DNA of 64,000 bases from Nitrosopumilaceae archaeon (GTDB lineage: Archaea > Thermoproteota > Nitrososphaeria > Nitrososphaerales > Nitrosopumilaceae). The translations under genes and the position numbers were made by a program. The notes beneath the pieces are model-generated. The model was not told the origin of the DNA. It worked only from the letters and a program-made list of their open reading frames with translations, and searched no databases. Shown piece by piece: positions 47,454-61,130 of the stretch; position 1 is the first letter of the stretch, and each line of letters opens with the position of its first letter. The stretch lies in the NCBI GenBank assembly GCA_965208905.1, contig OZ242365.1:192001-256000 (forward strand), read 5' to 3'.

Positions 47454-47601
47454 CACAGGCCAGATGTGGTCTTGAATTATACTGGACAGTTGTAAAAGAC
47501 AACAGGTCAAGATGGCCTCCAATATCAAGGGGCGCCGGGCGCATACATTATCAGGTTCCTCCCGCAAAGTCGGGTGATGGTTGATGTGTTGTTGGATAGT
47601 G

Positions 47602-47608
47602 TTAAATA
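47602..47608 (+). promoter_or_regulatory. probable TATA box of tnpB (element 1)
   Basis: TTAAATA about 20 nt upstream of ATG 47628/47631, consistent with a leaderless archaeal mRNA. Confidence 0.45.
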
Positions 47609-47627
47609 CGTTATTAAACCGTACTAT

Positions 47628-49145
47628 ATGATGGCTCTTGTAAAAAATAGTAGGGCAATAACACGTACATACACAAAAAATTTGGGTATGCAGTACGTGT
47701 TTGAGCATGTCAGGAAGGTGGCAGAAGTGGCGTACATTATAGCAGATAACACGGGGAAGAATACCTATGGTGTTAACGCATTGATGTATCGTACAATGCG
47801 CGGCCCTGACCCCAAAGTACATTCGTCCATAACGCAGACCGCCATACGGGACGGGGTTGCCGCCCATAACACGTACAATACAAAGACTGCGCAGGGCATG
47901 AAGGTATCTGAGCCCGTGTTTCGCAATCCGGTTGTAAAGTTGAAAAACCAAAATTGGAGGCTGAATCCGATAGCGGGTGGATATATGACTATTGCAAATG
48001 TTGGCTCATCAAAACACCCACATATGATAGCAATTCCCATCTCTTCAGATGTGGTACGCCGCATAGGACAAAATGAGTTGGGCGAGTTGTGGATCACGCC
48101 GACCACATACACCATAACGTATTACAACAAAGTGCCCGAGGTTGACAAGCCCCACCCATACGGCAAGTCAGAGATTATCGAGTTGCTTACGGATGTGGGG
48201 TATGTGGGCGGCACACCAAAGGATGTAATTGGCGTAGATATCAATGAGAAGAACATCACCGTAGGAGATAAAGATACAATGGTACAGTTTGATCTATCCG
48301 ATACGATACAGGCCATTGAAGACGCAAAGACTGAGGATGCAAACAATACGTATACACGTACACATGATAATGCTGTATATGCGGCACGTACCGGAAGGCG
48401 TGTTGTATACAAGAAAGAGGAGGAGCGCAGAGAAAAACAACAAGTTGTGTGTGGCGGTCCCAAGTTACACAGCAAACTCAAACGCAGATACAGAAAACTC
48501 AAGAGGGAGGGCAAACACAAGAGGGCCGCGGAGATAAAGAAGCAGATGAATAAATGCATATTAAACATACAGCATAACCACACAAAGTCAAAGAAGAATG
48601 CTAAAAAGCGCAAGGTGGCCAAAGCCGTGCGCCATCATGAACATGTGCTGAATGTGATGGCACTATGCATCGCACAGTGGGCCGCACAGTCTGGGTGTTT
48701 GGTGGTGTTGGAGGATTTAACCCGCATATCGTATAATTGGCAGAAGGGTGGAAGGTTTGGACGTATGATGCGTCGCAGGTTATATTCTGCCATGATGCGA
48801 AAGGCATCGGATTTAATTTATGAAAAGTCCCGGTTTTTGGGAGTGGAGGCATTACATATGCGTCCACACAACACATCCAAGCTATGTGCTGCGTGCAGAA
48901 CCATACTAACTGGAACTTATCATAGAAAAGACTGCACCCGCTGCCATATAGTTGGCGTAGATCGTGACGTCAACGCAGTGGAGAATATACGGCGAACAAG
49001 TGCCGTATCCCGATATGGTCGTCAGGTTTCGGCCAGTCTGGGCGAAGTCCGTCGTGGTGTGGATGTAATCCTCGATCCCACACCACTCATACAGGGTTGC
49101 TGGAGCAACTGGGCTGACAGACTATCCCGCATAGCGGGGGTGTAA
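47628..49145 (+). CDS. tnpB: TnpB-family RNA-guided endonuclease
   Basis: RuvC-I VIGVDINEKN, RuvC-II VVLEDL, P.NTSKLCAAC...CTRC Zn finger, RuvC-III DRDVNAVENI. The ORF track start (47574) lies inside the TIR. Confidence 0.9.
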   Translation: MMALVKNSRAITRTYTKNLGMQYVFEHVRKVAEVAYIIADNTGKNTYGVNALMYRTMRGPDPKVHSSITQTAIRDGVAAHNTYNTKTAQGMKVSEPVFRNPVVKLKNQNWRLNPIAGGYMTIANVGSSKHPHMIAIPISSDVVRRIGQNELGELWITPTTYTITYYNKVPEVDKPHPYGKSEIIELLTDVGYVGGTPKDVIGVDINEKNITVGDKDTMVQFDLSDTIQAIEDAKTEDANNTYTRTHDNAVYAARTGRRVVYKKEEERREKQQVVCGGPKLHSKLKRRYRKLKREGKHKRAAEIKKQMNKCILNIQHNHTKSKKNAKKRKVAKAVRHHEHVLNVMALCIAQWAAQSGCLVVLEDLTRISYNWQKGGRFGRMMRRRLYSAMMRKASDLIYEKSRFLGVEALHMRPHNTSKLCAACRTILTGTYHRKDCTRCHIVGVDRDVNAVENIRRTSAVSRYGRQVSASLGEVRRGVDVILDPTPLIQGCWSNWADRLSRIAGV

Positions 49146-49290
49146 TCACCCGACTTTGCGGGAGGAACCCATTATCAAAGATGTTTGTAATGTATGAATG
49201 AAATTTACATATTTACAAGACCGCCATCGACCAGGCGTCAGCACACATAAAATAACAAATCTGTCATAGAGTTTTAATATAGACAAAAAA

Positions 49291-58078: not shown

Positions 58079-58330
58079 CTACCAATCAGTCCCCTCATAT
58101 TTGGTTGGTTTTGCATTTGGGTGAGACTCTCTGAATCTCCATATCAGCCATATTATTGTACCAGATACAACAGCCCCTATTGTAATTGCAACCACCATCA
58201 TTCTAAAGAATAGATTCCATATCTCAACACGACGATCAAGATACTCGCCGGGTTCGGCGGTGGCAGCAAACGCCACATTAACTGTAAACATAACCGCCAT
58301 CATAACTAAAGCTCCAATAATGTATCGCAT
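58079..58330 (-). CDS. small membrane protein resembling the N-terminal TM part of oxidase subunit II
   Basis: IWNLF..MMVVAI.IG.VV......IWRFR; first gene of the cox cluster. Confidence 0.75.
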   Translation of the reverse strand: MRYIIGALVMMAVMFTVNVAFAATAEPGEYLDRRVEIWNLFFRMMVVAITIGAVVSGTIIWLIWRFRESHPNAKPTKYEGTDW

Positions 58331-58604
58331 TCCCTATTCACGATTCTATTAGGAATTCTATTTAATGGTTTACAGGGGTATGTCCTACTAGTATAAAGCT
58401 CCCGGAGTTTCCCCCGGCGACCTTATATCAGTAGCATAATTGGATACATCCAGGCGGTCGTCCAGAGATGGTGACTCATCACCCACATAAAGCAAGCTCC
58501 TCGCCTCCCCTTTAGGCCGCCGCCCTTCACCGTCGCATGGAAACCACAAGACGATACAGTCCAACAATTGTTGAACGCACTGCTCCCAATCCCAGTCTTA
58601 GTCA

Positions 58605-60075
58605 TGGGCTGTGACGTTATCTGCGCGTGTCCCAAGACAGCGCGTTTGACAACCCGTCGTATAGTTGAGTAGACAAATCTCCTGAATACACCGCTTAAAT
58701 ACCACCGAACTCATTGTATAATATGAAGTACAAAGACGAAAAGTACGTCATAAAGACTCTACAGTACCGTCTTAAGATATCCACCAGACTCACTCGATAC
58801 TTTAACTCAATGTATTCGGAATCCCACATATGGCTCAATGCAGGAATAAGGGCGCGTAAGGCTGGACTGACGGTGTTTGACACCAATAAGATAGCCACTA
58901 TATGCCAGACCATCCCCCAGGCCTGGGTTCGCGGCGCCATACGTGAAGGCCACAAGATAGAAGGCTGTACGCATGTAAGATATGGTAGGAAGGTTTACCC
59001 CCTGTTTAGTAACGTGCCACTCGGTAAAAAATCCAAAGGTACAACGGTGTATTTCCCAAGATGTAATATACCATTCAAACTACAGAAAGGGCATCTACCC
59101 AATACATCCCAATCATATAAGATAGTGGATGTCACGAACACTACAGACAAGGAGAGGCAGTTCGAACTACATGTAACTATACGTGAGCATGTCCCGGACC
59201 GCGTAGCGACGGGTGTACATGCTGGTATTGATATGGGTGGTAAGCACACGCTTGTTGTTGGAAAGTCCGATGGTAGTATTGCCATGCTGACATTACGTGA
59301 GAAGGATACTATACGGAACATAGCGCGTATGCAAAAGAAGATGAGTAGGTGCAAACTTCACTCCCGCAAGTGGCGCAACCTGCATGATACATTAAACAGC
59401 ATATACCGTAAGTTGGGAAATAGACAGAAAGACAAGCTGCGCAAGTTCTCAAAGAAACTAATGCGGCAGTGTGATAGAATAATCATGGAGGGGATGAACC
59501 TCCGTACAATGACGACCAAGGGTCCCGGGCAGACGCCCAAAAATCGTACGATGCGACAAAGTCATTGTGGTGAGGCGCGGGAGCACATTTCACAACAATA
59601 CCTACGATATAATGTAGAATATACGGAGATAAACCCAAAGAATACCTCAAAGCAGTGCTGTATGTGCGGTAGTTTGAATACGTGGCGCAAGAGCAGTAAG
59701 TTTAGGTGTCATAACTGCGGTATAGTGTGTCATGCGGACATCAATGCGGCATTCAACATACTTTTCGCTTTTCGTATTATACAGTGGAGTAAGCGCGCTC
59801 AGGGCGTTTATTCCCTACAAAACAAGGCTGGAATGGTCTTGAGAGGAAAGATACATCTCGCGACACTTACTATACCCAGTGTCGTTGGTGATGTGATGGC
59901 CGGTACAGGCTGTCACCAGGCTAGGCGTCAAAACCCGGCTGACAATGAACGTCTCTTGGAAACTCCTCTGGATGGTAATTTGCCAACATTTGTTGTACTG
60001 GGCGCAGGCCCAACTGTATAGCAGCTGTATTGAGTACGCGCATGTATGGACACGCGCAGATAACGTCACAGCCCA
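58605..60075. mobile_element. 1471-bp non-autonomous TIR element carrying only tnpB
   Basis: Perfect 28-bp TIR TGGGCTGTGACGTTATCTGCGCGTGTCC (58605-32 / 60048-75); 8-bp TSD CTTAGTCA (58597-604) vs CTTGGTCA (60076-83), one mismatch. Confidence 0.9.
58723..60021 (+). CDS. tnpB: TnpB-family RNA-guided endonuclease
   Basis: KTLQYRL N-terminus, RuvC-I AGIDMG, RuvC-II IIMEGMN, INPKNTSKQCCMCG...FRCHNCG, RuvC-III HADINAAFNI; CTTAAATA box at 58694-58701. Confidence 0.93.
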   Translation: MKYKDEKYVIKTLQYRLKISTRLTRYFNSMYSESHIWLNAGIRARKAGLTVFDTNKIATICQTIPQAWVRGAIREGHKIEGCTHVRYGRKVYPLFSNVPLGKKSKGTTVYFPRCNIPFKLQKGHLPNTSQSYKIVDVTNTTDKERQFELHVTIREHVPDRVATGVHAGIDMGGKHTLVVGKSDGSIAMLTLREKDTIRNIARMQKKMSRCKLHSRKWRNLHDTLNSIYRKLGNRQKDKLRKFSKKLMRQCDRIIMEGMNLRTMTTKGPGQTPKNRTMRQSHCGEAREHISQQYLRYNVEYTEINPKNTSKQCCMCGSLNTWRKSSKFRCHNCGIVCHADINAAFNILFAFRIIQWSKRAQGVYSLQNKAGMVLRGKIHLATLTIPSVVGDVMAGTGCHQARRQNPADNERLLETPLDGNLPTFVVLGAGPTV

Positions 60076-60290
60076 CTTGGTCATATGACATGAGTCTATA
60101 AGATGCCTTGTGGCTTTGCAGTACTTTGGTGAAGTGTTATTAACTATTTTGCTTCATTGGTTGTCAAAGATGAGGTGTGCAGCCAAATGCTCTATACGTA
60201 ACAGTACAACAGACAAAATAACAGATAGTTTAGAGGATACCTTTGTACAACAAAGAGACTACATCTACAATACCAACGAGTTGCCCTAGA

Positions 60291-61130
60291 ATGATAAACC
60301 TACTGGATGTGGTAAGATGGACATTCAGGCGTAGTCCATCAGATATAATACGACTCTACAACTCCCTCTCAGGAGTCATGGTCACAGCCACTGGAGGGGC
60401 CAGCCTCAACTTTGGACTGTGGTCGGACGACTGTGTTGAACCACTCTTGGCGCAGGACAATATGGCGCGACACTTTGGCAGGATGGCAGACTTGGATACG
60501 GCCAGTGTCGGGGCGGATGTTGGTTGTGGGCGGGGCGGACCTGCTAAAATATGGCAACAGTTGTATCCTGACTTTGATATAATAGGAGTAGACGTAAACC
60601 GTAGAGGTCTAGTAGAGGCCAAGCGTCTGGACCTTGCAGTCAATGCACTCTCTACTAGTCTACCTCTAGCCAATAACTCGATGGATCGTGTGCTTGCACT
60701 AGAGTCTGCGCAACATTTTCGTCCACTGTCAGTATTCACCAATGAAGCTGCCCGCGTATTGAAGCCTGGCGGCATACTATGTATGGCCATACCAGTCGTC
60801 GGACGACAGTACCACATAAGCCGATTGGGAATGCTTTGGTTGACATGGACATCTGAGCATTACAATGTATCGACCATACATGAGGCAATCAAAGCATCTG
60901 GGCTCCATATACAATATGAAGAGATGGTTGGTCCCATGGTGTATCTGCCGATGGCCAACTACTATATGAATAACAGAGACAGATTACAGGAGAGAATCAC
61001 AGCCACATATCCTAGATATGTAGAGTCAATACTGTATCGCTCCATACTAGACATGAGGCGGGCTTCCACACAGGATGTTATTGAGTATATGATTATAAAA
61101 TGTATAAAGCCATCACATGAGCGTATATGA
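60291..61130 (+). CDS. class I SAM-dependent methyltransferase
   Basis: LNFG.W, DVGCGRGG, ALESAQHF, RVLKPGG. Confidence 0.9.
   Translation: MINLLDVVRWTFRRSPSDIIRLYNSLSGVMVTATGGASLNFGLWSDDCVEPLLAQDNMARHFGRMADLDTASVGADVGCGRGGPAKIWQQLYPDFDIIGVDVNRRGLVEAKRLDLAVNALSTSLPLANNSMDRVLALESAQHFRPLSVFTNEAARVLKPGGILCMAIPVVGRQYHISRLGMLWLTWTSEHYNVSTIHEAIKASGLHIQYEEMVGPMVYLPMANYYMNNRDRLQERITATYPRYVESILYRSILDMRRASTQDVIEYMIIKCIKPSHERI

Follow-up and report, generated by a model that had tools for sequence, protein, structure and literature searches.

The subject of this study is element 2, a 1,471-bp unit with a tnpB gene in a 64,000-nucleotide stretch of archaeal DNA. This stretch, the window, comprises positions 192001-256000 of the genome of a Nitrosopumilaceae archaeon (G000:C1:192001-256000), which was assembled as a single contig of 2.21 Mb with 45.6% GC and is 99.6%-complete. 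A sister genome of the same genus, G005, was used for the empty-site and family comparison. The window holds another TnpB element, designated element 1 (47554-49169), with a perfect 25-bp terminal inverted repeat (TIR), GGTTCCTCCCGCAAAGTCGGGTGAT, and an 8-bp target site duplication (TSD), CATTATCA. The features of element 2 and its borders are, in window coordinates:

58593-58596, + strand: CAGT, the 4 nt 5' of the left TSD copy, candidate position of the target-adjacent motif (TAM); G at -2 in 7 of 10 TSD-verified family copies is a weak signal, and families X and Y (see below) are the stronger precedent
58597-58604, no strand: left TSD copy, CTTAGTCA, with one G>A change relative to the single CTTGGTCA of the G005 empty site
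58605-58632, + strand: left TIR, 28 bp, perfect by inverted-repeat match, beginning TGGG-CTGT, with an imperfect extension to ~58645 that includes a second GCGCGT
58692-58701, + strand: CGCTTAAATA box, putative archaeal TATA element and left cassette boundary, from copy conservation
58723-60021, + strand: tnpB, 432 aa from the conserved ATG (435 aa from TTG 58714), RuvC D/E/D and zinc ribbon intact by domain search and alignment
59818-60047, + strand: omega-RNA-like structured region, which overlaps the last ~68 tnpB codons and extends to the TIR (codon positions, covariation, strand-specific folding)
60048-60075, - strand: right TIR, 28 bp, perfect by inverted-repeat match; probably the last part of the omega-RNA scaffold, as the stop codon inside the right TIR of families X and Y suggests
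60076-60083, no strand: right TSD copy, CTTGGTCA, the ancestral form by the G005 empty site
60076-60095, + strand: putative guide template, the TSD and the first ~12 nt of flank, conditional on an omega RNA that reads through the TIR

The tnpB gene was the only long open reading frame (ORF) within element 2. Its product scored 44 bits with the Pfam model OrfB_IS605 (PF01385, cut-off 30.5) and 52 bits with Cas12f1-like_TNB (PF07282, cut-off 26.3). In an alignment with ISDra2-type TnpB structures, D173, E259 and D342 (numbered from TTG 58714) fell on the catalytic D/E/D residues, and the CxxC...CxxC zinc ribbon was intact, so that the ORF list and the alignment upheld an earlier reading of the bare DNA (the sequence-only reading), in which a sole, intact tnpB gene had been described. 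The real start is probably ATG 58723, because the paralogues begin MKYK..., and from this codon the protein has 432 aa with the triad D170/E256/D339. The long tail after RuvC-III was also present, but its length was 93 aa rather than the ~85 aa first given, with ~50 aa lying past the ISDra2 homology. The TnpBs of elements 1 and 2 had been called unrelated; they are distinct, but unrelated is slightly too strong, since the element 1 protein (47574-49142) was 37% identical to that of element 2 over 51 aa in the zinc-ribbon/RuvC-III region (E 1e-5).

Insertion site of element 2

The TIR of element 2 is TGGGCTGTGACGTTATCTGCGCGTGTCC, 28/28 complementary between 58605-58632 and 60048-60075, and is followed at both ends by an imperfect inward extension ending in GCGCGT, as the sequence-only reading had described for a unit of this same length. 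Within the window the 28-mer occurred at these two sites only, and 0 were expected (100 shuffles). The flanks, CTTAGTCA (58597-58604) and CTTGGTCA (60076-60083), were identical at 7/8 positions. In G005 the counterparts of the two flanks were 97-99% identical and the two matches overlapped by 9 nt. The empty site reads ...CCCCGGT CTTGGTCA TATGACACGAG, with element 2 precisely absent. Because this site holds one 8-mer, element 2 is a genuine insertion that duplicated 8 bp of its target, and the 7/8 flanks are the target duplication they had been taken for. The left TSD copy mutated later (G>A) and CTTGGTCA is the ancestral form. The earlier ambiguity between an 8- and a 9-bp duplication was settled in favor of 8 bp, because the extra T/A pair is part of the TIR (TGGG.../...CCCA). 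Element 2 was inserted in an intergenic region, with the cox-cluster genes on one side and a methyltransferase gene on the other; the sole ORF spanning the empty site was a 72-aa frame that was not conserved between G000 and G005. With TIRs, a TSD and a passenger gene but no transposase, element 2 has the composition of a mobile insertion cassette.

Four sequencing runs of one sample were available as contigs. These broke at repeats and had ~10x summed depth over 59791-59932, where paralogues had collapsed, and no empty allele of element 2 was seen among them. A contig junction, 58629>60050, seen in one run and with a shorter side of 26 letters, was rejected; it is best read as the contig of another element with the same TIR. 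To the left of element 2, a stretch of 220 nt (approximately 58375-58593) was single-copy in G000, but sister genomes had multiple copies of 69-80% identity (at least nine places in G006, several in G001 and two in G005); it held no conserved ORF, and Rfam gave no match at E <= 1 over 58300-58620.

TnpB families, their ends and the candidate transposase

The G000 genome had 75 matches to the TNB domain of TnpB and, at 99.6% completeness, no match to the Y1 TnpA model (PF01797); IS607-type serine recombinases lay outside this search. The TnpB of element 2 had 11 full-length or nearly full-length paralogues in G000, which were 72-83% identical. Among 16 scored loci of this family (11 in G000 and five in G005, one of them without candidate ends), a TSD with at most one mismatch together with a TIR of at least 9/14 was found in 10 of 15 copies. 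The TIRs were of several types. The TGGGCTGTGACG type was found on element 2 and on one other copy, the latter with a perfect 8-bp TSD, GTTCAGAG; the TGGGCTGGTAAC type on one copy, with ~110-bp TIRs and the TSD TAGACTAA; the GGCACTGTCAAATC type on the B-type paralogues, with the TSDs TTGACAAC and TGATCACG; GGAACTGTCCCA was a further type, and GGGAATTATAT was found in G005 only. A register of 4 nt followed by CTGT was common to the types TGGGCTGTGACG, TGGGCTGGTAAC, GGCACTGTCAAATC and GGAACTGTCCCA. The elements of a second TnpB family, X, were ~1,470 bp long with the TIR GGGAATTATATACAAAAGTACA, and those of a third, Y, which includes element 1, were ~1,615 bp long with the TIR GGTTCCTCCCGCAAAGTCGGGTGAT; both had 8-bp TSDs. 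Most copies in the three main TnpB families of G000 therefore sit between DDE-type inverted repeats with 8-bp duplications, and G000 is a genome in which TnpB moved wholesale onto DDE-type ends.

The distribution of the element 2 TnpB family was narrow. It was found in two of 81 genomes, G000 counted, and among five further genomes of the same genus in G005. A related-locus search gave one locus among genome contigs, in a Nitrosopumilaceae metagenome-assembled genome (MAG), and none among metagenome contigs, and the protein family comprised 44 clusters among 5.8 billion, with names given only from Cenarchaeum sp. MAGs. The DNA of element 1 had no match in five sister genomes at E <= 1e-30. Three further loci of G000 were recorded. 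A 1,054-bp unit (G000:C1:1880028-1881081) with element-2-type TIRs had neither tnpB nor transposase and kept a piece of the omega-RNA 3' region. A 144-bp miniature inverted-repeat transposable element (MITE) without tnpB (G000:C1:1905800-1905943) consisted of two right arms, of the TGGGCTGTGACG and TGAGTTGGTAAT types, head to head. At G000:C1:1691100-1693100 (L017), a long tandem run of CACTA pentamers adjoined the right end of a tnpB paralogue.

These results bear on the view that element 2 is an ordinary TnpB-only element of the IS200/IS605 type (IS1341 group), moved by Y1 TnpA, and that its repeats are coincidental. Its TnpB belongs to the same superfamily and the database name of its relatives is 'IS200/IS605 family element transposase accessory protein TnpB', but the 28/28 inverted repeat where 0 were expected, the TIR and TSD in 10 of 15 paralogues and the lack of a Y1 TnpA match in G000 leave this view scarcely credible, and the true 8-bp duplication at the G005 empty site already contradicts it.

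Transposase candidates were taken from an unbiased census of multi-copy ORFs in G000, which comprised two rve-type families, an IS630-like family, IS1595-like genes and 13 IS240/IS6-type (DDE_Tnp_IS240) genes. The rve and IS630-like elements were rejected as partners, their ends being unrelated to the TnpB TIRs. The IS6-type proteins had 356-463 aa, with cysteine-rich N-terminal extensions. Three representatives had NCBIfam IS6 as their best match (92-103 bits) and passed the Pfam DDE_Tnp_IS240 cut-off of 27 with 48-56 bits. The units that encode them are cargo transposons of 3.4-4 kb, because matching left TIRs lie 2-2.6 kb upstream of the transposase, which is located at the right end and reads outward. 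Their cargo includes DNA-methylase-like genes, their TIRs start GGnnCTG[TG], and perfect 8-bp TSDs, AAAAATTC and GTATTGAC, were found.

An intact transposase gene of this type, encoding 356 aa (genome 156690-157757), is located at the right end of a larger transposon of 17.4 kb (140415-157841) with TIRs that match at 22/22 positions, TGGGCTGGTAACTTATCCGCGC; its right flank, TGTCAAAA, recurs at a second left-end copy at 1116873. Duplications of 8 bp are made by this transposon as well. The TIR of element 2 matched the right end of the 17.4-kb transposon at 19/24 positions, the next best ends at 16 and 15, whereas the X and Y TIRs matched any IS6-type end at 10/24 at most. The tip of element 2, TGGG-CTGT-G, has CTGT in the IS6 register, starts with T and lacks the caaa motif; the B-type paralogues have GGCACTGTCAAATC. 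Moreover, the left end of one paralogue, c740549, was identical at 38/40 positions to the left TIR of an autonomous IS6-type transposon at 1337692-1341644.

The arrangement of the IS6-type transposons was consistent with a replicative mode of action. Two direct copies of one transposon had the flanks GTCCGTTG[IS]AAAATAAC ... 510 kb ... AAAATAAC[IS]GTCCGTTG, a pattern compatible with what an unresolved replicative cointegrate would leave, as judged from the flanks. A second transposon pair in the same check had a common inner flank. The two copies with the cointegrate pattern, at 1337692-1341644 and 1851328-1854929, are 3.6-3.95 kb long and lie as if a ~510-kb replicon had fused into the chromosome; the copy at 1337692-1341644 has two tandem left ends, 351 bp apart.

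Other observations concern the same transposons. The cargo of the 17.4-kb transposon (L025, 140300-157960), which comprises DUF499, a DUF1156 DNA methylase, an SNF2/ResIII helicase with NOV_C and several unassigned ORFs, looks like a defence-type cargo. In its second copy, at 1116873, 99.9% identity extends over 8.3 kb, up to a truncation by another IS6-type transposon at 1130912. At ten places in G000 (e.g. 347859, 470068, 470888, 474711 and 489476) there are 75-nt fragments that match the 3' end of a single IS6-type transposase gene at 96% identity; these are probably MITEs from the right end of that transposon.

The trans-mobilisation of element 2 by a DDE enzyme, which the sequence-only reading had proposed, is well supported because 1) the TIRs are accompanied by a true TSD, 2) there is no internal transposase, 3) no Y1 TnpA was found in G000 and 4) the ends match an IS6-type end. 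IS6 was among the families that had been named as candidates, and from the ends and protein matches the IS6-type is the best candidate class for the transposase. It was also proposed that the enzyme is distinct from that of element 1. A 1,536-bp unit at genome 926302-927837 with TIRs of the element 1 type encloses a decayed IS6-type gene (tblastn E 5e-23) and, because this gene is a different one and the TIRs differ, elements 1 and 2 use different IS6-like end subfamilies; the two enzymes would thus belong to the same superfamily and to different subfamilies. The sequence-only reading had offered to be abandoned if no other copies or partner transposase existed and the empty site were inconsistent with its duplication; a second copy with the same TIR, a candidate partner and an empty site with a single 8-mer were found.

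Several observations weigh against this explanation of element 2, 1) the end identity to the candidate was 19/24 and not exact, 2) no autonomous element with the exact element 2 TIR was found in G000, 3) the IS6-type transposases scored below the NCBIfam IS6 equivalog cut-off of 125 bits, 4) they reside in cargo transposons of 3.4-17 kb, as against classical IS6 elements of ~800 bp, 5) there is no sign of recent copying within G000, because the closest paralogue is only 83% identical, and 6) the TIR type cannot be predicted from the TnpB, because the same TnpB family has IS1595-type ends in G005.

The last of these observations points to an IS1595-family transposase, which also makes 8-bp duplications, as the partner of element 2. 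In G005, X-type TIRs with a perfect 8-bp TSD, AAATAAAG, enclose an IS1595-family transposase (163 bits, cut-off 75) and methylase cargo, other X-type TIR pairs enclose cargo only, a TnpB or nothing, and TnpBs of the element 2 family ride X-like TIRs. IS1595-like genes are also present in G000 (4+4 copies), one of them flanked by TGAGTTGG/TGAGCTAG, the first 8 nt of which are those of the ends of paralogue c1947335. However, this TGAG motif is not the end of a unit, since two 99.9% identical copies stay homologous far beyond it, and no TIRs were found around the G000 IS1595-like genes. The TIR of element 2 is unlike the X TIR, which matched no IS6-type end at more than 10/24, while that of element 2 matched one at 19/24. 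An IS1595 partner for element 2 is therefore improbable. Two loci of G005, L029 (G005:C1:877275-881143) and L032 (G005:C1:1011330-1013152), are IS1595-type TIR pairs with perfect 8-bp TSDs and DNA-methyltransferase cargo. A nested IS630-family element splits L029, and the methylase ORF of this locus has a C-terminus (residues ~193-266) that gave weak matches to IscB/Cas9d models and is probably an HNH-like domain.

On balance, the enzyme that moves element 2 in trans is likely to be a DDE transposase of the IS6 type that carries an additional zinc-binding region at its N-terminus, and the 356-aa enzyme is the best candidate for it. Such a transposase would probably act by replicative cointegrate formation followed by homologous resolution.

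The tnpB cassette, predicted omega RNA and guide geometry

DNA similarity among the copies of the element 2 family begins at about the CGCTTAAATA box and stops after ...CCAACATYTG, which leaves 43-83 nt to the end of the element. The box lies 22-30 nt upstream of the ATG in the nine G000 copies shown, with CTTAAAC instead in the two G005 copies shown; it may serve as an archaeal TATA element for a tnpB mRNA without a leader. Because conservation spans only this interval, the same cassette lies between interchangeable TIR modules. By sequence comparison, a predicted promoter-tnpB-omegaRNA cassette is found between at least five TIR types, including the IS1595-type ends in G005.

It had been proposed that the tail of TnpB overlaps the omega RNA, and three lines of evidence agreed. 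First, the mean pairwise identity at codon positions 1/2/3 was 0.82/0.86/0.52 for residues 1-345, 0.86/0.83/0.73 for residues 366-395 and 0.71/0.73/0.75 for residues 396-420. From about codon 366 the third positions are thus conserved like the first two, which argues that the tail is constrained as RNA. Second, RNAalifold predicted 56 pairs from 11 copies, 12 of them with compensatory changes. In this structure 94.6% of cells paired, as against 35-46% with the partners slid, and the 12 double-change pairs compared with 6.3 +/- 1.6 in shuffles (1/500 shuffles as high), with the caveat that the structure under test came from the very sequences used to test it. Two versions of one hairpin were found, CGACACU/AGUGUCG and GCACUUG/CAAGUGC, with differences at 5/7 pairs, and the last hairpin before the TIR was present in all copies with different sequences and compensatory changes. 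Third, the sense strand of element 2 folded with z = -3.0 (0/200 shuffles as stable), the antisense strand with z = -0.9 (37/200). Rfam gave no match at E <= 1 over 58400-60300. These results support a predicted structured omega RNA that overlaps the 3' end of tnpB in element 2. A helix in the minimum-free-energy fold, between CAGCC of the TIR tip and an invariant GGCUG block, was dropped, as it did not covary with TIR type in other copies.

The sharp, fixed boundaries of the cassette, at the promoter box and at ...CCAACATYTG, within at least five TIR modules could also be explained if the cassette were an IS1341-type (IS200/IS605-like) element nested in an IS6-type MITE, the TIR and TSD belonging to the MITE only. 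The guide would then be the 16-20 nt after the scaffold end (from ~59993, inside the unit) and the targets cassette-free MITEs. MITEs with these ends do exist, and the base ahead of the promoter box region was A in the nine G000 copies shown. However, the bases ahead of the cassette were poorly conserved except for this final A, a systematic search with 10 copies gave no cassette-free junction of left and right arms, and the 144-bp MITE joins two right arms head to head rather than a left and a right. In addition, the stretch after the scaffold was homologous between copies and always formed a hairpin with compensatory changes, so that it looks like scaffold and not like a guide, and G000 lacks a Y1 TnpA match that could account for the movement of such an element. 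A nested IS1341-type element is accordingly unlikely. Element 2 is quite probably a single non-autonomous DDE-type transposon, in which IS6-type TIRs surround a promoter box, tnpB and an overlapping omega-RNA scaffold.

The location of the guide was approached through the sister families. The right TIR of families X and Y contains the tnpB stop codon, which is 5 and 24 nt, respectively, from the end of the element, so that only the flank is left for a guide. For family X, 12 TSD-verified pairs were obtained from 23 left-type and 27 right-type ends. On the tnpB-upstream side of the TSD, G was found at -1 in all 12, T at -3 in nine and A at -4 in nine. In family Y the base at -2 on the same side was T in 12/12, two of these pairs being MITE-sized and of uncertain orientation. 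The mirrored downstream positions gave no signal in either family, and the binomial tails, uncorrected for the 64 tests, were 2e-8 (X) and 2e-7 (Y). The target preference of a transposase complex with two-fold symmetry should itself be symmetric; a base conserved on the upstream side only therefore points to something oriented, for which a TAM is the obvious candidate. Two more X-type TnpB elements in G005 also had G at -1 on the tnpB-upstream side. By contrast, two of five X-type elements without TnpB in that genome lacked G on either side, which ties the signal to TnpB and not to the transposase, although the sample is small.

The invariant base that would mark this geometry was seen in families X and Y, and for element 2 itself the geometry is a prediction with a weak signal in its own family. 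If its omega RNA read through the right TIR, the guide template of element 2 would be CTTGGTCATATGACATGAGT and the RNA would end in CTTGGTCATATGAC.... The G005 empty site was identical to the CTTGGTCATATGACATGAGT stretch at 19/20 positions, and the TAM position of the element 2 site would hold CAGT or CGGT. Three points count against this extrapolation. G at -2 in the element 2 family (7/10) was not significant after correction for multiple testing, two G005 copies of this family with X-like TIRs have TA instead, and a distance of 43-83 nt from scaffold to element end, with differing TIR types, is awkward for a scaffold with a fixed 3' end.

A tentative model, one that could well be wrong, is that the omega RNA reads through the right TIR, that the guide consists of the TSD and flank, that the TAM is a few bases 5' of the TSD in the unoccupied site and that TnpB cuts empty alleles, which are converted by recombination. 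Such cutting would amount to homing or drive and would benefit an element that is never excised by its own transposase. A more general version, which is doubtful at present, is that the promoter-tnpB-omegaRNA unit is a portable homing module that was placed within the ends of at least two unrelated DDE transposon families, IS6-type and IS1595-type, in this archaeal genus, with the guide through the right TIR, the TAM 5' of the TSD and drive against empty alleles. With transposases that copy and do not excise, TnpB would act as a gene drive and not as the restorer of an excised donor. Essentially only TAM-adjacent insertions would persist, in line with the 14/14 of family X, while TnpB-less elements with the same ends lack the signal.

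Implications and comparison with known systems

In the usual account, TnpB is the partner of transposases that excise without a scar (Y1 or serine), and it brings the element back by cutting the donor site again once this has been emptied. The IS6-type family leaves no empty donor site, because it is reported to work by replicative cointegration. The G000 genome, with 75 TnpB matches and no TnpA, is thus a natural test case for the role of TnpB in a non-excising transposon, where TnpB might act as a drive against empty alleles, cause addiction or assist the resolution of cointegrates. Element 2 illustrates how RNA-guided nucleases can hitch-hike on unrelated transposons. The most interesting point is that an orientation-specific invariant base outside the TSD provides a testable guide/TAM prediction for elements of the TIR/TSD type. 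The occurrence of the cassette between different TIR types presents TnpB-omegaRNA as an exchangeable cargo module, a step of the kind thought to precede capture by CRISPR arrays or other transposons. If the portable-module proposal is true, then in a genome without TnpA the pattern of DDE transposon insertions would be shaped by an RNA-guided nuclease. On the practical side, these are compact archaeal TnpBs with a predicted TAM.

The IS6 family has 8-bp repeats and TIRs with a GG tip and the motifs cTGTt and caaa, with one passenger-carrying member and two MITEs reported overall in the survey of Varani et al. (2021, PMC7986276). Element 2 resembles IS6/IS26 in the 8-bp duplication, the G-rich TIR tip and CTGT at positions 5-8, and its autonomous relatives do so in the IS240-type DDE transposase and a flank pattern compatible with an unresolved cointegrate. 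It differs in the lack of a transposase and in the T at the start of its tip, and the autonomous relatives differ in their size of 3.4-17.4 kb with cargo, the zinc-binding N-terminal extension and scores below the NCBIfam IS6 cut-off.

The IS200/IS605 and IS607 families are described as having neither TIRs nor TSDs (PMC13565253, PMC4810608). The IS1341 group resembles element 2 in its single tnpB, an omega-RNA scaffold that overlaps the 3' end, a length of ~1.3-1.5 kb and its non-autonomous nature. However, insertion in that group occurs 3' of a fixed 4-5-nt site and needs Y1 TnpA (PMC13565253, PMC4810608), whereas element 2 has TIRs, an 8-bp TSD and no Y1 TnpA in its genome. In the ISDra2 TnpB structures (8bf8/8exa/8h1j), homology extends over residues 135-384 with the catalytic D/E/D and zinc ribbon aligned; the TnpB of element 2 has ~50 extra C-terminal residues that overlap the predicted RNA scaffold, and a different transposon context. 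Fanzors are likewise RNA-guided nucleases of the TnpB type that are passengers of DDE transposons that make TSDs, but they are eukaryotic or viral, their RuvC-II glutamate is relocated and their TAM is taken to include the short, fixed TSD (PMC13565253). The TSD of element 2 is 8 bp long and variable, with the candidate TAM 5' of it; the same guide/TAM question applies to the eukaryotic Fanzors.

Literature searches that combined TnpB with IS6, this archaeal lineage or mobile insertion cassettes gave no relevant result, and no published link of IS6 or IS1595 to TnpB was found, although supplementary locus lists may contain such loci. A 2026 review (PMC13565253) names ISL2, IS630 and IS1031 as DDE families with TnpB. 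The closest precedent is the description by Altae-Tran et al. (2023, PNAS, PMC10691335) of six DDE-associated TnpB branches, DDE-1 to DDE-6. Like element 2, these have inverted terminal repeats and not IS605 hairpins, and they include solo TnpBs with the ends of transposase-bearing relatives, the 3' end of tnpB lying within 250 bp of the transposon end. The difference lies in the partner, since the main text of that study names IS630 and does not name IS6-type or IS1595-type partners, which its supplementary locus lists may hold. Element 2 is an archaeal, IS6-type, non-autonomous form of DDE-associated TnpB, a kind that is already published.

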